Positions 1-34,852 of a DNA stretch of 64,000 bases are shown here, in pieces; position 1 is the first letter of the stretch, and each line of letters starts with the position of its first letter. A program made the translations under genes and the position numbers. Location: positions 20,973 to 84,972 of the forward strand of contig JAAOZP010000010.1 in NCBI GenBank assembly GCA_011605725.1, read 5' to 3'. Below the pieces are notes generated by a model, which worked only from the letters and a program-made list of their open reading frames with translations, had not been told where the DNA came from and ran no database searches. This DNA is from Nitrososphaerota archaeon. Lineage in GTDB: Archaea > Thermoproteota > EX4484-205 > JAAOZP01.

Positions 1-3000
1 GCCTCTTTCCCCGGGAATCTAACGTAGACTGTTAACCCTGCTTCGAAAGGTCTTTCAGGGTCCTCGAGTTGAAGCCAACCATCGCCACCAGTCATCTTGT
101 TGAAAAATATTGAGAAATATTTGTTTATTCTGTTCAACCCTTCTAGGAAAGCCTCCCTCTTTCTCCTTTCAATATCCTCCATAAACTCCTGAATGCTCCT
201 TCTTTCTTCCTCAAGTTCATTAATCCTTTCAAGAGCATTCTTATAGAAATAGACTTCTTGCTCATACTGGTTAATGGCAAGCATGTTTACTTCTTGAACC
301 TTCTCGAGCTCGCTTCTAAGTGTTTTTAAGTAATTCTCCGTTAAGATTTCCTTATCTTCTGAAACTTTAAGCGGCTCGCCGGGAATCCTACTCTTCAACT
401 CTTGAATCCTGCTTTCACTCATTTCTTTTTCAGTCAGCAGTTTCCTCTCAACGTCTTTAACCCTGTTTATCTCTTCGTTCAATCCTTCGATCTCCTTGTC
501 AAGTTTCCGAATCGTTGAAACAATATCTTTCCTCTCGTCCTCCACATCCTCGCGCGTAACCTCTATTTTCTCATCCACCTTTTTCTTCAATTCTTCTATT
601 TTTGCATTTAAATCACGAGTCAAGTTTAAAATCCCTGTATTGTCTTCTCTAATCTTAGATATTTTCTCGCCCAAAGTCTTTTCGGTATTCCTGTATTCTA
701 AATTCTTTCTACGTAGATTGCTAACTATATTCTCGATCTGTGACAATTTGTTTTTAAAAACGTTTCTTTGCTTTTCGAGTCTCCTTAACTCTTTTTCAAT
801 CAGCCTTATTCTCCTGCGAATCCTACTGAGGTTTTTCTCTCTGGCTGCGATTAACGATTTCAGCCTCATTCTTTCCTTTCCCAATAAGTGTTTTCTACTT
901 CTATCGTGTTTTCTAAATGCTTGGCTCAGTCTTCGAGACGCTTCCAGATATTCACCTGTCAGAGTGCTTAATTGCTTCTCAAGCTCCTCCACACGGGAGT
1001 CGATAGTGCTCAAATCCTCTGCAAGTCTGCTTCGAATACTTGTAGTTTCAAGTATTTGGATGCTCAAAGCCGGTCTAACATGATTATTCATGGTCTCAAG
1101 TATTCTGAATAATTCGCCAGCTTTCTCCGAGAAGTTTTTCACGACACTTCTAATGCTTTCCAGTTTCTCTTCAATGTTTTCCCTGATTAATCCCCCTTCG
1201 ACGGTGAAAACTTCTCCGTTTACAGTCGCTGCCCTGAATCCTCTTCTAGCGAAGACGAGAGCATCTTCAGCATTGCTAACAACAACGCTGTTCCAGAAGA
1301 GTTTTAAGACATGTTTTTCAATATTCTTAGGATATTTGACTAAATCCATTGCATGCTTGCCACGTTTGCCGAGTTCAAACGGTATTTCTTTCCTGCTCGC
1401 TTCCCCTTCGGAAGTTAACACTTTAACTCCTATACCTTTTCCACTAAGAAAATTCATTAAGAAAAGCATGTCTAGAGAGCTTTTGACGAGGACAGCATCC
1501 ATCCAATCGCCAGCCAAGGCCTCGACGGACTTGCTCAATTCCTTTGGAAACCAGAGGCTCTCTCTCAGGGTTCCATAGATGTTTAAGCCTTTTTTCTCGG
1601 AAACTTTTTTAACGAGGTCTAAAGCCTTTCTCCTTTTCTCATCCTGAATAGCGTGGCCCGCCATTCCGGAGGCTTTTGCGAAAAGGATTCTAAACGAATC
1701 TAAACTGTTCATCAAGATTTTAACAGTGTCCATTATCTCGTCAAGCATTCTCCTCCTTTCCGCTAAAACCCTGTCGAGATCAGTCAGTTTCTCGATAACT
1801 CTGTTTTTCCTGGTTGTCTCTATTTCTCTTCTCCTGCTTAAATGCTCTATTCTCCTTCTGAGATTATCATGGTAAGTAATGATTTCTCTAAACATTTTTT
1901 CTGAATTCTTCTCCTCGAGCACTAATCGGTCTAAATCCCTGTCGACCAGAATCAGTCTGTTCTTCAGGCTATAAGCCGTCGCCTCCTGCTGTTTCTCAGC
2001 GTCTTGAAGTCTTTTTTTCTCGTTTAAAAGATGGGTGATTCGAGTGTTGATTGAAGATATTTTTTCGAGTATGCATTTAGAATCCTCTGTAAGACTTATC
2101 GTTTTTCTCTGACTCCTATTTCTTTTTCGTCTAGTTTTAGATAGTTCTCTCTTAATAGTGTTTAGCTCGCTCCTGTTTACCTCAAGCCTTTCAAGGGATT
2201 CTTTAAGCCTTTTTTCAAGATCTCTCAACTCGTATTGAAGTCTAATTCTCTCTGAATCGGGGGTTGCAGAAGCAGCGGTTTCTAAGAGCTCCTCCATCTT
2301 CTCTATAAGGCTTCTTTTCTCAGCCTGTCTAGAGGCAAGCTCCGTCTCTAGTTTACGCCGTATAGCGTTATTCTCCTCAAGGCTTTGGGATATTTCCTCG
2401 AGTTTTCTAACAAGCTTCCAATACTCCATTGAATTGATAATCATCTGCATTCTCTCAACCTCCTTCTCAAGCATTCTTCTCCTAAGTAGAATGTTTCTCT
2501 CTCTTTCTAATTGAAGCATCCTCCTATCGATCTCTTGAAGCCTAGCCTGCACAACCCTAAGATTATTGTCCGCCAGCTGCAGGTTGTTAAGTGCTTCCGC
2601 CTTCTTCTCATCATACTGCGCTAAGCCTAGTGCCTGTTCTATCTCCTTTCTCCTCTCCACGGGATTTTTATCAGCTAGTCGTGAAATCTCTCCCTGCGGT
2701 ATTATGTTGTAGCCTCTTGCAGAAAGACCTGTTGAGGAAATAGTGTCCTCAACAACGTTTTTAGAAGTCCTTTTACCGTTGAGATAATAGGTGCTTTCCC
2801 CATCCCGCCCCATTCTCCTAGCTACTGTTATAAATCTTTCTTGTCCAGGTATTGTTGAGTCACTATTATCTATAGTTATCTTCACATAGGTTTCCGCCTC
2901 CCCGCCAGCGTTATCGTTAACTAGAGAGGTGAGTTTATCTATCCTAAGAAGCCTAGGATTATTCTCTCCGAGTGCGAAACGTATCGCATCGATTAGATTA

Positions 3001-3599
3001 CTATTGTGAACTATCAGGCCATCTCCGGTAATATATGAGCCAATGTTCTTCACATATATGTCGTATACTTCTCCTTTCCAAAATTTCTTAACGATCCTGT
3101 TTAAAACATCTAAACGCGTTTTACCCTCGTCGACAACCAGTATCCTCATGCCTTCCGATATCTGTGAAGCCTTGATCCACCTGTATGTCTCGTTTCCCCA
3201 AGCCGCCATCAGCCTGTGCTCCGGGGTTACCTCAATCTTTCTTCCGGCTGCTGTTTCAATTTTTAATACGAATCCCTCATAAGGTTTTCTGAACACGGCA
3301 CTAGCGCTTGTTTCAACACTCCTCCCTAGAAGCGTATGGTAGCTTATGAGCGGCTCCCTTCTACAAGGAATTACGTATTCCCCGTCTGTCAGCTTTATTC
3401 TTATACCTTCTGAGGACAATTCTTTGAAAAATGATTTCACGTCCAGTCCTCCCCACGGCCGTTCTATGATTGTCCAGGGGGCTATGCATTTTCCAGAACC
3501 ATTTCTACCGGTTAAAACAGTTAGGCCTCTGCTTAAGTTTATAACCTGTCTACCGCCTACTGACTTGAAATTCCTGATTTCGATCCTGGTTAGATGCAA
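1..3599 (-). CDS. smc: Chromosome segregation ATPase SMC (partial; the C-terminal about 100 aa lie beyond the left window edge); contains an intein
   Basis: Missing from the ORF track because it has no in-window stop. Hand translation of the minus strand starts at TTG 3599: LHLTRIEIRNFKSVGGRQVINLSRGLTVLTGRNGSGK-[insert]-SNLIDAIRFALGENN. A long E/K/L/R-rich coiled coil follows; its antisense gives the S/F/L-rich plus-strand shadow ORFs at 496-3606. A hinge-like segment GLNIYGTLRESLWFPKELSKSVEALAGDWMDAVLV lies at about 1500-1590. The C-terminal head begins LQLEDPERPFEAGLTVYVRFPGKE, ending at nt 3. The frame from 3599 is consistent with the frame at nt 3-5 (1199 codons). The absence of any listed minus-strand ORF here implies there is no internal stop. 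Confidence 0.9.
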   Translation of the reverse strand, partial: MHLTRIEIRNFKSVGGRQVINLSRGLTVLTGRNGSGKCIAPWTIIERPWGGLDVKSFFKELSSEGIRIKLTDGEYVIPCRREPLISYHTLLGRSVETSASAVFRKPYEGFVLKIETAAGRKIEVTPEHRLMAAWGNETYRWIKASQISEGMRILVVDEGKTRLDVLNRIVKKFWKGEVYDIYVKNIGSYITGDGLIVHNSNLIDAIRFALGENNPRLLRIDKLTSLVNDNAGGEAETYVKITIDNSDSTIPGQERFITVARRMGRDGESTYYLNGKRTSKNVVEDTISSTGLSARGYNIIPQGEISRLADKNPVERRKEIEQALGLAQYDEKKAEALNNLQLADNNLRVVQARLQEIDRRMLQLERERNILLRRRMLEKEVERMQMIINSMEYWKLVRKLEEISQSLEENNAIRRKLETELASRQAEKRSLIEKMEELLETAASATPDSERIRLQYELRDLEKRLKESLERLEVNRSELNTIKRELSKTRRKRNRSQRKTISLTEDSKCILEKISSINTRITHLLNEKKRLQDAEKQQEATAYSLKNRLILVDRDLDRLVLEEKNSEKMFREIITYHDNLRRRIEHLSRRREIETTRKNRVIEKLTDLDRVLAERRRMLDEIMDTVKILMNSLDSFRILFAKASGMAGHAIQDEKRRKALDLVKKVSEKKGLNIYGTLRESLWFPKELSKSVEALAGDWMDAVLVKSSLDMLFLMNFLSGKGIGVKVLTSEGEASRKEIPFELGKRGKHAMDLVKYPKNIEKHVLKLFWNSVVVSNAEDALVFARRGFRAATVNGEVFTVEGGLIRENIEEKLESIRSVVKNFSEKAGELFRILETMNNHVRPALSIQILETTSIRSRLAEDLSTIDSRVEELEKQLSTLTGEYLEASRRLSQAFRKHDRSRKHLLGKERMRLKSLIAAREKNLSRIRRRIRLIEKELRRLEKQRNVFKNKLSQIENIVSNLRRKNLEYRNTEKTLGEKISKIREDNTGILNLTRDLNAKIEELKKKVDEKIEVTREDVEDERKDIVSTIRKLDKEIEGLNEEINRVKDVERKLLTEKEMSESRIQELKSRIPGEPLKVSEDKEILTENYLKTLRSELEKVQEVNMLAINQYEQEVYFYKNALERINELEEERRSIQEFMEDIERRKREAFLEGLNRINKYFSIFFNKMTGGDGWLQLEDPERPFEAGLTVYVRFPGKE
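3003..3488 (-). mobile_element. Mini-intein (162 aa, no homing-endonuclease-sized insert) inside the SMC Walker A motif
   Basis: The insert begins with Cys (TGC 3488-3486) directly after GRNGSGK. It has a block-B-like TxxH (KIEVTPEHRLMA) and a block F/G-like EVYDIYVKNIGSYITGDGLIVHN ending at 3003. The +1 residue is Ser. Removing the insert restores GRNGSGKSNLIDAIRFALGE. Confidence 0.8.
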
Positions 3600-3790: not shown

Positions 3791-4180
3791 TTGTCAGTAT
3801 ATCAAGGAGACATATTCAAGAGGAAGAAGACTGGTGGTAAGAGTCATCCCAATAGGGGTAAACGCAAGTATGAAATGGGGAGGCCACCGGCTCTTACGAG
3901 GCTTGGCGAGAATAACGTTGTCGAGAAGGTTAGGGTTAGAGGAGGAGGTTTGAAACTTAGGGTTGTTCAGGCTGCGTATGCTAACGTCGCTGTTGAAAAG
4001 AATAGGGTTGTGAAAGCTAAGGTTTTAGACGTGGTTGACAACCCTGCGAACAGAGAGTTCAGCAGGATGAAGATAATAACTAGGGGTGCTATAATAAAGA
4101 CTGAGGTGGGTAATGCTGTAGTGACTTCTAAACCAGGCTCCAACGGGGTTGTGAACGCTAAGCTGGTTTCTGAAGGATGA
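3791..4180 (+). CDS. rps8e: 30S ribosomal protein S8e
   Basis: TTG start. SVYQGDIFKRKKTGGK...RKYEMGRPPA...VRVRGGGLKLRVVQAAYANV matches the archaeal S8e pattern (MAIWQG..KxSGG...RELGR...RxRGGNxKVR...AxYANV). Confidence 0.9.
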   Translation: MSVYQGDIFKRKKTGGKSHPNRGKRKYEMGRPPALTRLGENNVVEKVRVRGGGLKLRVVQAAYANVAVEKNRVVKAKVLDVVDNPANREFSRMKIITRGAIIKTEVGNAVVTSKPGSNGVVNAKLVSEG

Positions 4181-4473
4181 AAAACATTTCTAAAGAACGT
4201 TATGTGATAGTTTACCCGCAGTATTTTGATTCTAGGGCTTCGCGGAAAATGGGGAGACGTGTCCCAAAGGGTCTTGCAGTCGACTCTCCGAGCCTAGCTA
4301 GGATTGCGGAAGCGTGTAAAAAGCTTGGCTTAAAGGTTACGCTGGAGCCTGACAAGGCTTATCCTAGGGCGAGCAATGTAAAGTGCGGGAGAATAGTGGT
4401 TTTCTGCAAGAATATGCATAAGAAAAGCCTTATTGAAAAAATAGGAGTCGTAATGAAGGGTGGTGCAGGTTGA
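4177..4473 (+). CDS. srp19: Signal recognition particle protein SRP19
   Basis: 98 aa. YVIVYPQYFDSRASRKMGRRVPKGLAV.PSL..I..A.KKLGL is the typical SRP19 N-terminus. There is a 4-nt ATGA overlap with rps8e. Confidence 0.85.
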   Translation: MKNISKERYVIVYPQYFDSRASRKMGRRVPKGLAVDSPSLARIAEACKKLGLKVTLEPDKAYPRASNVKCGRIVVFCKNMHKKSLIEKIGVVMKGGAG

Positions 4474-9271: not shown

Positions 9272-9862
9272 TTGTATAGCCTGGTCGACCTCGTGGCAAA
9301 AACACTCGTTAAGGCAGGCGGTTTTCTAGCATGGCCTGATAAGACTGATGAAGGAGTCTTGCAACCTTTTGTACTTGACCTTACTACGATCCTAAGCCAT
9401 CCGCCTGTTTTCCTCCGGGTCGCATCCAACCTTCTCCAGGTTGTTAGAAAGAAAGCCGGGTTGAAAAGCTTCGAGTTCGTCGCGGGAGTGCCCTTGGCTG
9501 GAATACCTTACGCGTCATTCCTCTGCGTTAAAACATGTAAACCCATGTTGCTTGTCAGGGAGAGAGGCGGTGGGAAGCTTGTAGAGGGTCCTTTAAAAAT
9601 GGGGGATAGAGTACTAGTTGTTGATGACTCTGTTGTGACAGGCAGACAGATACTGGAGACTGCTAGTAAAATCGTTTCGGAGGGAGGGGTGGTTGAGCAG
9701 GCTGTCGTAATAATATGTCAGAATAAGAATGCTGTGAAAAGGCTGAAGAGCAAGGGGATAACTTTGCACGAGTTGATTGATTTCAAAAGCCTAGTTGGAA
9801 GTTTGAAGAAACTCGACGCTTTAACCGAAGAGGAATATAATTCTTTACTTTCCAATGTATAG
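9272..9862 (+). CDS. Type I phosphoribosyltransferase, divergent PyrE-like paralog
   Basis: PRPP loop RVLVVDDSVVTGRQ, with overall PyrE-like length and order (FEFVAGVPLAGIPYAS...). It lacks the F.L.SG..SPYY.D motif that the bona fide pyrE at 26799 has. Confidence 0.6.
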   Translation: MYSLVDLVAKTLVKAGGFLAWPDKTDEGVLQPFVLDLTTILSHPPVFLRVASNLLQVVRKKAGLKSFEFVAGVPLAGIPYASFLCVKTCKPMLLVRERGGGKLVEGPLKMGDRVLVVDDSVVTGRQILETASKIVSEGGVVEQAVVIICQNKNAVKRLKSKGITLHELIDFKSLVGSLKKLDALTEEEYNSLLSNV

Positions 9863-9988: not shown

Positions 9989-10699
9989 CTATGTTTTCGT
10001 CTTGGGTTTAGATGCTTCAGACTCCTCTATCAGCGGAATTATCTCCTCAACGCAGAACTTTATGAATGAGGCAGGGTCGATCCTGCTGAAGATCGTTACG
10101 ACAGCATCCCTAGTGATACCTGCAACATATCCTGTTTTTCTGTGAGAAATAACTAAATACCATATGTTTCCATGTTTCAAGTATTCTGTGAACAGACTTG
10201 TGTTAGCGAGCGATGGCCCGTATAGCGAGAGCTTCTTAATATTAGGTATATCAACATCGTCGAAGAAAACTACTTTGACAGCATCACTATTCGCATTATG
10301 ATAATTCAACATTACTTCTGGGGAAATCCTGGCTTCAACAATCCTGCCGCTTTTAAGAAAGATCACTTGGCTAAACATGTTGGCAACCATGTTTGCAACA
10401 GGTTTTTTCTCCAACACTATTAGGAAGACTCTCCTCCTTCTGAAAGCGAAGCTGAAAACTGAGTCAACTGTTTTAGCAACTATTTCTGTCCTATCCCTTC
10501 TCTTAATCGTCAGAGGCACATCTCTACTAATAATTCCCTCCAGCATGTTTTGGGAAGCCTTCAGCTCAGCAATCTCAGTCATCAGACTTAGGTCAACTCC
10601 CTCTAACGGTGTTTCAACCCTGTAACCCTTAAGCCTCTGGGCAATATCGCTCTGAGACAGGTACTCATCCAGTCTGAATATCTTTCCTGCAGTAACCAT
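9989..10699 (-). CDS. Hypothetical protein (236 aa), no family recognised
   Basis: Long ORF with normal composition. It is divergent from the SMC-like ATPase across a 413-bp spacer. Confidence 0.5.
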   Translation of the reverse strand: MVTAGKIFRLDEYLSQSDIAQRLKGYRVETPLEGVDLSLMTEIAELKASQNMLEGIISRDVPLTIKRRDRTEIVAKTVDSVFSFAFRRRRVFLIVLEKKPVANMVANMFSQVIFLKSGRIVEARISPEVMLNYHNANSDAVKVVFFDDVDIPNIKKLSLYGPSLANTSLFTEYLKHGNIWYLVISHRKTGYVAGITRDAVVTIFSRIDPASFIKFCVEEIIPLIEESEASKPKTKT

Positions 10700-11112: not shown

Positions 11113-12888
11113 GTGGAAACTACAGAGCAGGAAAAAAGTCTCCGGCTGAAAGAAGTTCGACTTGAAAACTTCATGAGTTACAAGTATGCCACTATACCTG
11201 TTCGCCCTAAGCTTAACCTTATTCTTGGTCCCAACGGGTCCGGTAAGTCGTCAATACTCTTGGCTGTTTCCGTTGGCCTTGGCCAGTCTAGGAGCGGCAG
11301 GGCTGAGAAGCTCAGCGACCTGATTAGGAATGGGGAGGATATTGCTAGGGTTACACTGGTGTTCGACAATTCTCCGGGGCAGGATGGGAAAAGGCCTGTT
11401 CCATTCATAAGGTCAGACGAGCTCGTTATAACCAGGTACTTGAGGAGAGATGGGGAGTACTGGAGCCAGATTAACTATAATCCTGCTACAAAGATAGAGG
11501 TTGAAGAAATCCTCTCCCTCTTCGGCATAGATCCGTCCAACATGCTGATAATCATGCATCAATACATGATTGAGGAGTTTGCCTCTCTTGAACCGTCTGA
11601 AAAGCTTAGGCTTGTTGAGGGTGCTGTCGGCCTGTCTGGGCTTAGGGAGAACATTAAGGCCTCGCAGGAGAGGCTTAGCAGGATTATCAGCGAGGAGAAG
11701 TCTGTTGAAGCACTTCTAAACGAGGCTCGTGAGACGCTGGGAATGTGGAGGGCGGAGTACGAGAAGCTTGTTAAGAAGAGGGAGCTCCAGGCTCTTCACG
11801 CCGAGTTGAACAGGCTTCTTAAATGGAGTATATATAGCCAGCTTAACGCTGAAAAGGCTAGGCTTGAGGAGAATGTTTATAGGCTTGAGACTAGGATTGC
11901 TGAGGGGAACCGGGTTGTCTCCCGGACTTTGGAGAAGTGTGATAAGGTTTGGAGCAGACTGAATAAGGTTAGGATGAAGCTTAAAAGAGTCTTTTTCAAA
12001 GCCTCTGAAAAAGGGTTTGACGACAGTCTTATCGACGAGTATAGTAGGCTGGATGAGGAGATAACTCGGTTAATTAAGAGCTATGTGAGGCTTAACGTTA
12101 AGGCGGAAGTCTTGAAATACAGGATCAGGGAGCTTGAAAGGGAGCGTCGCAGAATTCAGGAGAGGATTAAAGCTGTGGAAGACAGGGTTAAGGAAGTCAG
12201 GGAGCAGCTTGAAGGCGAAGCACCCAGGGAGACTGATCCTCCCGATGTCTTGGAGAAAAAGATTAACGACTGTATTATTCAAATAGCATCGCTCGGCACG
12301 GTCAGCGAGAACGCTGAAGAGCTTTACAAAAATTATCTCAATGTTTACAGTGATCTTGAGCAGAAGGTTAAGATGATAGTTGAAAACAGGAGGGCTGCTG
12401 AAAACGAGCTTAAAGACAGGATGGAAATATGGAGGAGGAAGGTTGTTGAGACGATAAGCAAGGTTAACGAAGGGTTTAGGAGAAACATGGAGGTGATGGG
12501 GGGGACAGGCGAATTAAGACTTGTGAACTTGGAGGATATTGAGAATGCTGGCCTAACCATCTTCGTAAGCTTTGGCGGCACTAACCTGACAGAGTTTAAC
12601 GCCTACACTCAGAGCGGTGGTGAGAGGAGCGCGACAGTCGTATCGTTCCTAATGGCTTTACAATCGTTAGTTCGATCAAGCATTAGAGGGATCGATGAAT
12701 TGGATGTACATATGGATCCAATGAATAGGATAAAATTTTTCAAAATATTATCGGATGTGGTTGAGAAGAATCCTGGTGTGGCGTACTTCTGTATCACTCC
12801 CGGGACTCCGCCCCCGGTTAAGGATGCTCATGTTATTGTTGTCCAGAAAGTTCAGGATGAGTCACGAATATTGGAAGTTGAACAGTAA
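11113..12888 (+). CDS. Short hinge-less SMC5/6-/Rad50-like ABC ATPase (archaeal SMC-related protein type)
   Basis: N-terminal head LKEVRLENFMSYKYATIPVRPKLNLILGPNGSGKSSILLAVSVGLG. The middle is coiled-coil-like. The C-terminal head has YTQSGGERSATVVSFLMAL and Walker B/D-loop IRGIDELDVHMDP. The protein is only 591 aa. Confidence 0.75.
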   Translation: METTEQEKSLRLKEVRLENFMSYKYATIPVRPKLNLILGPNGSGKSSILLAVSVGLGQSRSGRAEKLSDLIRNGEDIARVTLVFDNSPGQDGKRPVPFIRSDELVITRYLRRDGEYWSQINYNPATKIEVEEILSLFGIDPSNMLIIMHQYMIEEFASLEPSEKLRLVEGAVGLSGLRENIKASQERLSRIISEEKSVEALLNEARETLGMWRAEYEKLVKKRELQALHAELNRLLKWSIYSQLNAEKARLEENVYRLETRIAEGNRVVSRTLEKCDKVWSRLNKVRMKLKRVFFKASEKGFDDSLIDEYSRLDEEITRLIKSYVRLNVKAEVLKYRIRELERERRRIQERIKAVEDRVKEVREQLEGEAPRETDPPDVLEKKINDCIIQIASLGTVSENAEELYKNYLNVYSDLEQKVKMIVENRRAAENELKDRMEIWRRKVVETISKVNEGFRRNMEVMGGTGELRLVNLEDIENAGLTIFVSFGGTNLTEFNAYTQSGGERSATVVSFLMALQSLVRSSIRGIDELDVHMDPMNRIKFFKILSDVVEKNPGVAYFCITPGTPPPVKDAHVIVVQKVQDESRILEVEQ

Positions 12889-32647: not shown

Positions 32648-34852
32648 TCACGATACTATTACTTCTTCCTTTCTACGAAACGCGTATAAAAGCAGTATTA
32701 CGATGATTATGCTTCCAACGGACAAGGCTATCATAATTATGTTCAAACCAGTTTTAAGGTGGGTTGTGCTTCCACCAGGCTTCACCGTAATGGCGACGCT
32801 TTTCCCGAAAGTAGGCTGGATTATCGAGTAACTTAAGGCTTCGCTTTTCTCGCCAAGGCTGCTGGCTATAGAGTAGTCTACTTCAACCCTGATTTCGGAG
32901 CCCTTTGAGAAGAGCAGGTTAACCTCCTGACCGTTCCAGAGGGTTAGAATATTACCCTCGTCGTAAAACCTGAATGGCTCTATGATGACTCTGTTTCCTG
33001 AAAGCCGTATTCCCATTTGGTCAAGGTTTGCAACGTATCTTGAGCCGTTCAACAAGACTCCCTCGAAACTCCCATTGTAGCTGACCTCAACCCGTCTAAC
33101 GCCGATCCTAGTTTCATTCGTGAAGAAGAGACCGTTTAGTCTTAGAAAATCTTCTTCAGCCAACTCAGGCTGGAAAACAATATTCCTCCTGTTTTGAACA
33201 TCCGGAGCGAGAAGGCTGGTTCTGGCTTCGCCATACTCTATCAGCCGGAGGAACAGTGACAGCTCATCGTAAACATTCCTCAGGGAAATCACGTTTTCAT
33301 TCAAACTTTTTTGAACACTCTCTAAGCCTGAGGTGGCGTTTTCAAGCATCGGGGTAATGCTAGTAAGGTTGCCTCCCATCATCATGTTAGCCTCGCCAAT
33401 GAGCTTTAATGCTGAGCTCATCTCCGCCAGTGCCGAGGATGCTTGGGATAATGCTGAGAGGCCTGATCCTAAGCCTGAGCTCATCTTCACGATGCTGGAA
33501 CCATATTCCTCCAGCATGTTTATGAATGATCCTAGGCTTTCAAACAGAGTGTTCAGCTGAGGACCTGCTGATTCAAAATAGCTTTCAACGATGCTTAAAC
33601 GATTATAGAGGCTGGTTATTCTCCGGGTAGCGTTTTCCAGCAGGCTTATCTGACTAGGGTCGGTCAAATTTTCTCTGAGGGTCGTTAAAGTATTGTTAAT
33701 CTCTAAGAGGCTTTGTTCCGCGTCAACGATCATTCTATAAGTCTCGTTCAGGATTAAACCGGCTGACTGTCGAGAGGAGTTAAGCCCCTGCCTCAGCCTG
33801 TTGAAATCCACTTTAGAAACGTTTTCAGCGACTATCGATAGTAGCGAAGTTACTCCGGAAAGTTGAGATGCTGCCGAGCTGAGTCCGAAACTCACTGCTT
33901 TCAAGGCTTTACTAATCATAACGGTTTGATTACCAGTAGTCTCCAGAACGGAGCTCAGGTTGCCAAGCATTCCCGTCATCAGGCTAGTGAAGCTGGTGAG
34001 ATTGCTGATGGGCGTCAGAATCATATTCATCATGCGCATAGTCATGTTCAGCTCGTTTAACTGGGAAAGCACCGATTTCTTCACAGACTCCCCCATGGGG
34101 GAGGATGAGATCGAGATCGTTGTCAAAGGAATGGTGCCCCAATCATCAAATCCTTCTACAACAGCCTCCGCCCTTATCTCCGCCTCCTCCCTCAGTATGA
34201 GCATCCATGAAACAGAATCCTTCTCAAGAGGGCTAGTCATGTTCACAGGAGGATTGTAAACAATTTTTCCAAAGTACCTCTGAGGAATGTTTATCGTTAC
34301 TGAGACGAATACTGGAGGCTTCGAGGAGGTGTTTGTCAACGGGTCGAGTAGAACAGGATTATTGTTCTTAAGCCTTACCACCCATTCCGCGGAATCACCC
34401 TCTTCAGACCTTACGAAGAATACTCCATAAGCCGAAGTATAGTTTGGAACCGCCCCGTTAATCCTTAGGCTTGCTTCAACTTTTAGTGGAAGCCAAAGCG
34501 GCTTACCGCTAACCTCGAAAACGCTTGTACCAGGATTAGCCTGAACAACCCATTCGACCACGCAGAAGTCTCCTGAATCCTGTTGGATACGTGCTTCCGG
34601 CGGCAACACTAGGGTTGAAACATTTACCTTGAACAGTCTTTGAGTGAAACGGTACGGGACAGTCGACTGGCCAATATTCTTGACAGTAACAGTAGATTTG
34701 AATTCAACCGTGGAGTCCCCGGTTAACGGGTTTAGGTCCAGTAAATAAGTGAGGCTTTCGCTCACAGAAACCTGCGTCTCTTCCGGATTAGCCTTCATCA
34801 CTATAGGGATCATCAGCATCAGAATTAGGAAAACAGCTTGAACGCGTTTCAT
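32648..34852 (-). CDS. Large secreted, C-terminally membrane-anchored surface protein (beta-rich ends, long helical sequon-rich centre)
   Basis: N-terminal signal-like MKRVQAVFLILMLMIPIVMKA and a C-terminal TM LNIIMIALSVGSIIIVILLLYAF followed by RRKEE. By my manual count there are about 19 N-x-S/T sequons, mostly in the central S/L/N-rich helical region. There is a 4-nt overlap with the ABC ATPase. Confidence 0.6.
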   Translation of the reverse strand: MKRVQAVFLILMLMIPIVMKANPEETQVSVSESLTYLLDLNPLTGDSTVEFKSTVTVKNIGQSTVPYRFTQRLFKVNVSTLVLPPEARIQQDSGDFCVVEWVVQANPGTSVFEVSGKPLWLPLKVEASLRINGAVPNYTSAYGVFFVRSEEGDSAEWVVRLKNNNPVLLDPLTNTSSKPPVFVSVTINIPQRYFGKIVYNPPVNMTSPLEKDSVSWMLILREEAEIRAEAVVEGFDDWGTIPLTTISISSSPMGESVKKSVLSQLNELNMTMRMMNMILTPISNLTSFTSLMTGMLGNLSSVLETTGNQTVMISKALKAVSFGLSSAASQLSGVTSLLSIVAENVSKVDFNRLRQGLNSSRQSAGLILNETYRMIVDAEQSLLEINNTLTTLRENLTDPSQISLLENATRRITSLYNRLSIVESYFESAGPQLNTLFESLGSFINMLEEYGSSIVKMSSGLGSGLSALSQASSALAEMSSALKLIGEANMMMGGNLTSITPMLENATSGLESVQKSLNENVISLRNVYDELSLFLRLIEYGEARTSLLAPDVQNRRNIVFQPELAEEDFLRLNGLFFTNETRIGVRRVEVSYNGSFEGVLLNGSRYVANLDQMGIRLSGNRVIIEPFRFYDEGNILTLWNGQEVNLLFSKGSEIRVEVDYSIASSLGEKSEALSYSIIQPTFGKSVAITVKPGGSTTHLKTGLNIIMIALSVGSIIIVILLLYAFRRKEEVIVS

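Follow-up and report, generated by a model that had tools for sequence, protein, structure and literature searches.

What separates the two parts of the ATP-binding loop in the SMC gene of this archaeal DNA, and is it retained in the working protein? The stretch analyzed, termed the window, comprises 64,000 nucleotides of contig JAAOZP010000010.1, and the host organism is a hot-spring archaeon of the Brockarchaeota clade, with orthologous loci in the genome scans carrying the labels Candidatus Brockarchaeota, Thermoproteota, Crenarchaeota, and Nitrososphaerota in metagenome-assembled genomes (MAGs). The insert that parts Walker A in this SMC ATPase is, with a probability that we put at about 0.9 from its sequence and predicted fold, a splicing-competent class-1 mini-intein. 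A sequence-only reading of the same DNA had proposed a mini-intein of 162 residues at this point.

The insert, its fold, and the splice junction

The minus-strand translation reads LHLTRIEIRNFKSVGGRQVINLSRGLTVLTGRNGSGK / CIAPWTIIERPWGG...EVTPEHRLMA...EVYDIYVKNIGSYITGDGLIVHN / SNLIDAIRFALGENN with the insert lying between the slashes. Placement by script assigns it to residues 38–199 of the precursor and to window positions 3003–3488 (minus strand), in agreement to the base with the coordinates of the sequence-only reading, and its 162 residues extend from CIAPWT to LIVHN between the flanking segments GRNGSGK and SNLIDAIRF. The residues associated with splicing can be read directly in the codons, including the cysteine start, the TxxH block, the HN end, and the following serine that had been picked out earlier. 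Cys-1 (TGC, 3486–3488) forms block A and is the predicted nucleophile for the N–S acyl shift. Block B is the TPEH sequence at 3216–3227, with Thr-88 at 3225–3227 and His-91 at 3216–3218, and block F contains Asp-143 (3060–3062) within VYDIYV. His-161 (CAC, 3006–3008) and Asn-162 (AAT, 3003–3005) make up block G at 3003–3008, where cyclization of the terminal asparagine would release the intein. The first residue of the C-extein, Ser+1 (AGT, 3000–3002), is the putative trans-esterification nucleophile and is at the same time the serine of the Walker A motif GxxGxGK[S/T].

In the window copy and 10 orthologues, whose inteins share 46–77% identity, Cys-1, Thr-88, His-91, Asp-143, His-161, and Asn-162 are invariant, one orthologue reading TSEH in block B with the threonine and histidine kept, and Ser+1 is found in all orthologue copies. 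A broader alignment of 19 inteins, which includes those of other host proteins, retains only five invariant columns (Cys-1, Thr-88, Asp-143, His-161, and Asn-162), the block B histidine being variable. Judged from these alignments the conserved residues are the full set of a class-1 intein. The insert is not assigned to the autoprocessing domains of the bacterial intein-like (BIL) or Hedgehog type, since it has the canonical HN|S junction and this does not vary.

The family models agree with this assignment. The Pfam model Intein_splicing (PF14890) matches with 42.8 bits (E = 6.1e-11; gathering score 35.8), and the NCBIfam model intein_Nterm (TIGR01445) with 33.2 bits (cut-off 24.5). Both scores are above the curated cut-offs in this comparison with intein models, which the sequence-only reading had suggested; the companion model intein_Cterm (TIGR01443) scores 14.6 bits, slightly under its cut-off of 15.6. 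Further NCBIfam matches are to intein-containing Tes, V-ATPase A, PolII-DP2, aIF2, RFC, and RNA polymerase A'', by way of their inteins. A phmmer search of the PDB gives the TvoVMA mini-intein (PDB code 4o1s) over almost its full length at E = 1.5e-8 and the Pho RadA intein (PDB code 4e2u) at 1.7e-7, followed by Pho and Tli VMA, MJ0781 (KlbA), and Mtu RecA, the best matches all being inteins. Only Intein_splicing and Hint are matched by Pfam in the insert, with no match to LAGLIDADG, HNH, or other endonuclease families, and a remnant of an endonuclease appears neither as a Pfam match nor as a disordered linker in the structural model described below. The insert is classed as a mini-intein consisting of the HINT domain only because it has 162 residues, lacks an endonuclease match, and is modeled as a single compact domain, which bears out the earlier expectation that there is no room for a LAGLIDADG or HNH domain. 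In the six-frame translation of the window this is the only intein detected with a clade-specific intein profile, a narrow profile that could miss distant inteins.

The AlphaFold 2 model of the intein was built from the alignment of 19 diverse inteins and shows a single compact, mostly β domain with a mean predicted local distance difference test (pLDDT) value of 95.9 and a predicted template modeling score of 0.88; a model from a three-sequence alignment gave a pLDDT of 36 and was discarded. Searched against the PDB with Foldseek (E = 3e-11), the model returns nothing but inteins in its first 31 ranks, and Hedgehog and BIL domains come next. The top matches are the PhoCDC21-1, Pho RadA, TvoVMA, PabCDC21-1, and TFIIB mini-inteins and Mtu RecA, the template modeling (TM) scores to solved inteins range from 0.81 to 0.91, and the Hedgehog autoprocessing domain (PDB code 1at0) is also matched. 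Superposition on TvoVMA (4o1s) gives TM scores of 0.91/0.87 and a root mean square deviation of 1.6 Å. On this model the insert has the HINT fold. Taken with the Pfam (E = 6.1e-11), phmmer (1.5e-8), and Foldseek (3e-11) values and with the invariance of the catalytic residues in 11 orthologues, the match of sequence and modeled fold to inteins is far beyond chance.

The position of the insert is defined by removing it in silico. The spliced sequence GRNGSGKSNLIDAI aligns with GANGSGKSNIGDAI of Pyrococcus Smc with no gap over the GSGK-SN junction (tgrNGSGKSNlidAi against vGANGSGKSNIGDAI), and the nearest solved homologues of the spliced N terminus are the intein-free Pyrococcus Smc heads (PDB codes 5xei, 5xns, and 1xew, E = 4.6e-41). 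This gap-free alignment places the insert exactly between the Walker A lysine and serine, so that the +1 nucleophile is the Walker A serine itself, as the sequence-only reading had it.

Occupancy of the SMC site within and beyond the clade

An intein is present at the same point in 15 of the 15 clade species genomes that have this type of extein, the proteins being 61–84% identical over the first 279 residues. The clade inteins have 157–162 residues and the same motifs, with one locus broken by masked bases. A survey of related genomes for empty and occupied alleles had been suggested along with the sequence-only reading; occupied alleles are found in these 15 genomes and on nine metagenome contigs, the latter from a control search of the JGI metagenome collection for the occupied-junction pattern VHNSNL[IVM]DAIRFA, with eight of the nine inteins intact and one cut by the contig end. 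The corresponding empty junction, GRNGSGKSNL[IVM]DAIRF, searched as a degenerate DNA pattern, has no matches in 185,579 species genomes and none in the JGI metagenomes.

Pairwise Nei-Gojobori estimates give ratios of nonsynonymous to synonymous substitution (dN/dS) of 0.15–0.29 for the intein compared with 0.09–0.18 for the exteins. For the closest pairs the synonymous distances (dS) of intein and extein are similar, with 0.075/0.088 (loci L001 and L002), 0.130/0.128 (L005 and L006), 0.287/0.326, and 0.463/0.445. These values fit co-divergence of the intein with its host gene under purifying selection. Two further loci labeled Brockarchaeota, L041 (DRTY-1.bins.18) and L044 (JZ-2.bins.136), encode a very different SMC of the GPNGSGK type with inteins 27–34% identical to that of the window (comparison set L025–L039), and either the label spans deep lineages or the site has been invaded more than once.

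Beyond the clade, a HMMER scan of 1.84 billion representative proteins with the intein profile gives 88 matches at E ≤ 1e-3. Among these, SMC proteins of other lineages contain mini-inteins of 156–164 residues at the same point, namely P0012 (a Thermoproteota MAG), P0056, which clusters with GenBank OYT65179.1 from Bathyarchaeota, P0015, P0035, and P0017. A word-index protein search returns only one close partial relative each time and is uninformative on distribution. A scan of species-representative genomes with the junction patterns TG[PR]NG[SQ]GKC and [VIF][VLI]HNSN[LIV][IVL][DE]A yields 96 confirmed relatives, of which 79 loci were retrieved, and in all 79 the GK|S site of SMC is occupied. 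The hosts cover many archaeal phyla and some bacteria. Archaeal records include Brockarchaeota, Nitrososphaerota, Bathyarchaeota, Mnemosynella, Aenigmatarchaeota, Woesearchaeota, Micrarchaeota, Iainarchaeota, Nanoarchaeota, Parvarchaeota, Odinarchaeota, Thermoplasmata, Methanomassiliicoccales, and Methanosarcinales, and bacterial records include Rubrivirga, Chlorobiota, Omnitrophota, Myxococcales, Pseudomonadota, Roseiflexaceae, Actinomycetes, and Desulfurobacteriaceae. The bacterial SMC loci L064, L072, L076, L077, L078, L081, L083, and L098 carry GK|SN inteins of 193–500 residues where both junctions are seen.

Where both junctions fall within the retrieved DNA, inteins at this site have 156–218 residues, 367 residues once, or 498–546 residues, and many more exceed the 1.5-kb flank and hence have more than ~480 residues. 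LAGLIDADG_3 is present in all three of the large inteins that were scanned. The sequences thus describe an SMC site that hosts a normal intein population, composed of mobile endonuclease-bearing forms and decayed mini forms. A separate observation concerns the large inteins (532–538 residues) of L055, L056, L065, L071, and L089 from Aenigmatarchaeota and unclassified archaeal MAGs, which begin with serine (GPNGSGK|SVRADTEI...); a LAGLIDADG domain is present in L055, the one scanned. Their precursors still show a seemingly intact GxxGxGKS, and checks that rely on motifs could overlook the intein for this reason.

Archaeal SMC inteins are mentioned by Novikova et al. (2016, Mol Biol Evol 33:783, PMC4760082), whose main text states neither their site nor their species, and beyond that mention no SMC intein described in any detail was found in the literature searched. 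With this mention and the 79 occupied loci the site is not new as a kind; inteins in archaeal SMC have already been reported, and the Brockarchaeota copy is an ordinary further member. The broader statement of the sequence-only reading, that inteins concentrate in P-loops, accords with published work. PMC4760082 describes the P-loop as a place where inteins insert repeatedly, among others in DnaB, MCM, and RFC ATPases, and Topilina et al. (2015, PMC4513877) name it as the most common intein site.

Splicing, persistence, and competing explanations

The arrangement of residues suggests the following course of events. The SMC gene would be translated as one precursor, of ~1305 residues in the orthologues, in which the HINT domain folds and Cys-1 forms a thioester with Lys-1, the last residue of the N-extein. 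Attack of Ser+1 on the thioester would give a branched intermediate, Asn-162 assisted by His-161 would cyclize and free the intein, and an O–N shift would then link GRNGSGK to SNLIDA, leaving an intact P-loop in a normal SMC of ~1143 residues. In the unspliced precursor 162 residues separate the Walker A lysine from the serine, and such a protein should neither bind nor hydrolyze ATP. Lacking a homing endonuclease the intein would be immobile and would pass by vertical descent through the clade together with its host gene. Purifying selection would keep it competent in splicing because either a defect or an imprecise deletion would destroy an important ATPase, and it would persist because it is harmless when spliced and can be lost only by exact deletion. 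The intein probably descends from the LAGLIDADG-bearing inteins that are found in SMC at this position in other archaea and in bacteria.

Several points weigh against this account or parts of it. The case for splicing is drawn entirely from sequence, predicted fold, and conservation, and it is from these that we infer both that splicing occurs and the history of the element. The search for empty alleles used one exact degenerate pattern, which diverged empty alleles would escape. The intein evolves faster than its surroundings, with 46–77% identity compared with 83–96% in the spliced N-terminal 223 residues. Some pairs are discordant in dS, the clearest being L001 and L004 with 0.755 for the intein and 0.387 for the exteins, which leaves strictly vertical descent unproven; L001 and L007, L002 and L004, and the window copy with L001 (0.643 for the intein and 1.071 for the exteins) also disagree, and the discordance may reflect exchange of inteins between lineages by recombination or noise in 162 codons. 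Finally, the large LAGLIDADG inteins at the same site are weakly similar to that of the window (blastp E of 1e-4 or weaker), and on sequence their common descent with the Brockarchaeota intein is plausible.

The sequence-only reading went further and proposed that splicing could act as a conditional switch. The intein would then be a domesticated post-translational gate in which the native exteins or a cue such as low temperature, oxidation, a metal, or the lack of a partner hold back splicing, with the unspliced precursor restraining SMC loading and chromosome compaction, so that the supply of ATP-competent SMC and hence segregation are tuned to the growth conditions of the hot spring. By analogy with other P-loop inteins this is conceivable although unlikely. 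The P-loop position is of the same kind as that of the Pho RadA intein, which is locked by its native exteins until heat releases splicing (PMC4513877), both Pho RadA and TvoVMA are among the nearest solved relatives in sequence and fold, and Novikova et al. (2016) make the general case that P-loop inteins may be retained for function. A gate would also explain why an immobile intein without endonuclease is fixed under purifying selection in all clade members found, with no empty allele; the same fixation and selection are, however, predicted equally by a selfish element that can be lost only by precise deletion from an essential motif. Details of the molecule also argue against a gate. Cys-1 is the only invariant cysteine, Cys-42 of the window copy not being conserved, and there is no second conserved cysteine for a redox trap. 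Only 37 residues precede the intein, which could splice well before the C-terminal half of the head is made and would leave little room for a lock. The searched literature contains no experimental report on any SMC intein. A temperature or redox switch is at this point pure inference, to which the present data lend no specific support.

A second possibility is that the HINT-derived insertion has degenerated, no longer splices, and is kept as an extra domain in the mature SMC head. It is very improbable, even though the element is without endonuclease, immobile, and fixed in the clade, and insert domains of this sort exist in principle; a non-splicing domain would have no need of catalytic residues that are all invariant or of a Ser+1 in every copy, and the insert parts the Walker A lysine and serine in a loop that has to run unbroken around the phosphates and that is gapless here in the intein-free SMC structures. 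An assembly chimera, a frameshifted pseudogene, or a chance in-frame insertion might be suspected in a gene from an uncultured organism that is truncated by the window edge. The same open frame and junctions recur in 15 independent MAG assemblies and on nine metagenome contigs from different projects, with dN/dS well below 1, and an artifact of this type is already refuted by the comparative data and scarcely worth entertaining. The splicing-competent mini-intein is the explanation retained; as a textbook case it enlarges by one ATPase the set of proteins known to host P-loop inteins. The occupancy of the SMC site by endonuclease-bearing and mini forms offers useful material for studies of the intein homing cycle, and a compact, probably thermostable 162-residue mini-intein with Cys-1 and Ser+1 could be of interest to protein engineers. 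Should splicing prove conditional, the organization of the chromosome would be tied to the environment through protein splicing.

The host gene, its surroundings, and related inteins

The SMC open reading frame starts with a TTG codon at 3597–3599 on the minus strand and is still open at window position 1 in the translation of 1–3599. The window contains the 5' part of the precursor gene (1–3599, 1199 codons) with the 3' end lying past the left edge; complete orthologues encode 1298–1305 residues. The N-extein (3489–3599) has 37 residues, LHLTRIEIRNFKS...LTGRNGSGK, of which the last seven, GRNGSGK at 3489–3509, begin the Walker A motif, and it matches residues 4–39 of the Pyrococcus Smc head. 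The partial C-extein (1–3002) continues from the remainder of the head N-lobe through a coiled coil, the hinge, and a second coiled coil into the beginning of the head C-lobe. The hinge domain is found at 1257–1583, corresponding to precursor residues 673–781 (PF06470, SMC_hinge, E = 1.9e-10, 41.6 bits against a cut-off of 22.5), and Pfam matches to the gene product are SMC_N, AAA_23, and SMC_hinge. The G+C content of the insert is 45.1% compared with 41.2% for the remainder of the SMC gene and 45.6% for the window, by which the base composition of the insert is unremarkable.

The spliced window protein matches the NCBIfam model SMC_prok_A (TIGR02169) over positions 1–1068 of 1165 (E = 3.3e-107), the rest of the model falling past the window edge, where the window copy lacks the last ~106 residues. 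The complete orthologue L001 has 1305 residues as precursor and 1143 when spliced, matches the model over positions 1–1161 of 1165, and ends with SGGEKS and FYIFDEPDAHLD. With the C-terminal part seen in L001 the full SMC architecture is present, comprising the N-terminal head with Walker A, coiled coil, hinge, coiled coil, and the C-terminal head with the signature motif and Walker B. L001 scores 504.8 bits spliced and 472.3 bits unspliced, the intein lowering the score by only ~32 bits, and both values are under the NCBIfam equivalog cut-off of 729.4. No family outscores TIGR02169, and with its score below the equivalog cut-off the host protein is classed from its sequence as a divergent SMC.

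In GenBank the SMC proteins of Brockarchaeota and Bathyarchaeota are named "AAA family ATPase" or "hypothetical protein," and SMC may consequently be scored as absent from such genomes. The intein was considered as the main cause of these generic names and ruled out, as the spliced protein is likewise under the NCBIfam cut-off. The concern of the sequence-only reading that automated annotation could split or miss the gene is therefore borne out only in the naming, the relatives being called as one open reading frame of 1298–1305 residues and not split. The gene is, as had been noted, absent from the list of open reading frames for the window; the reason is not the intein but the frame running off the left end, since the list leaves out frames that extend beyond the source.

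The genes for ribosomal protein S8e and SRP19 (3791–4473, plus strand) lie immediately upstream of the start of SMC and are divergently transcribed from it, followed by genes for an FtsJ-like methyltransferase and a Trm1-type tRNA methyltransferase. A second, short SMC-family ATPase of 591 residues is encoded at 11113–12888 (plus strand), 7.5 kb from the SMC gene, with matches to SMC_N, AAA_23, and AAA_15 and to TIGR02169 in two stretches (E = 6.5e-58). It falls far short of the cut-offs for SMC, Rad50, ASRP, and arcadin-4, and its intact P-loop, GPNGSGKSS, provides a homologous site without an intein. No kleisin (ScpA or ScpB) is present among the SMC-gene neighbors scanned, a scan that did not include every open reading frame. 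Open reading frames at 32648–34852 (minus strand, 734 residues), 9989–10699 (minus strand, 236 residues), and 9272–9862 (plus strand, 196 residues) have no Pfam match at E ≤ 1e-5, and the 64-kb window contains no tRNA genes or Rfam families at gathering score. The gene content seen in the window is otherwise housekeeping, together with glycoside hydrolases (GH3 and GH5), carbamoyl-phosphate synthase, and an NFACT protein.

Compared with known systems, the closest in setting are the other SMC P-loop inteins, which share with that of the window the host protein, the insertion point GxNGxGK | S-N-[LIV]-x-D-A, and Ser+1. Mini forms of 156–165 residues from other Thermoproteota, Bathyarchaeota, and Nitrososphaerota-labeled MAGs are 27–34% identical to it (blastp E of 1e-13 to 1e-21). 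The Brockarchaeota intein is unlike these in forming a divergent type of its own, which starts CVAPWT and has GSY in block F in place of HNF or HNY. Many inteins of DPANN and bacterial SMC proteins differ further in having ~500–546 residues with a LAGLIDADG endonuclease, some starting with serine instead of cysteine. Among the closest sequence relatives in the scan of 1.84 billion proteins are inteins of MCM (CDC21), in the P-loop and in Walker B, and P-loop inteins of aIF2 and KaiC-like ATPases. Several of these lie directly after the Walker A lysine as in SMC (GDPG[TV]AK|C, DHGK|C...HN|TT, and GKRGSGK|C...HN|SY), although their hosts are not orthologous to SMC and many contain multiple inteins or an endonuclease. 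The Pho RadA mini-intein (PDB codes 4e2t, 4e2u, and 2lqm) is likewise archaeal, has ~170 residues, interrupts the P-loop of a DNA-metabolism ATPase, and shares Cys-1, TxxH, and the terminal HN, with TM scores of 0.87–0.88 to the window intein; it differs in its host protein and is only ~16–18% identical in sequence. Conditional splicing locked by the exteins has been demonstrated for RadA (PMC4513877), to which the SMC intein is analogous by insertion position only. The TvoVMA mini-intein (4o1s) resides in a different host, subunit A of a V-type ATPase, and has only 23% identity, yet with 170 residues and no endonuclease it is the best match to the window intein in both sequence and structure.

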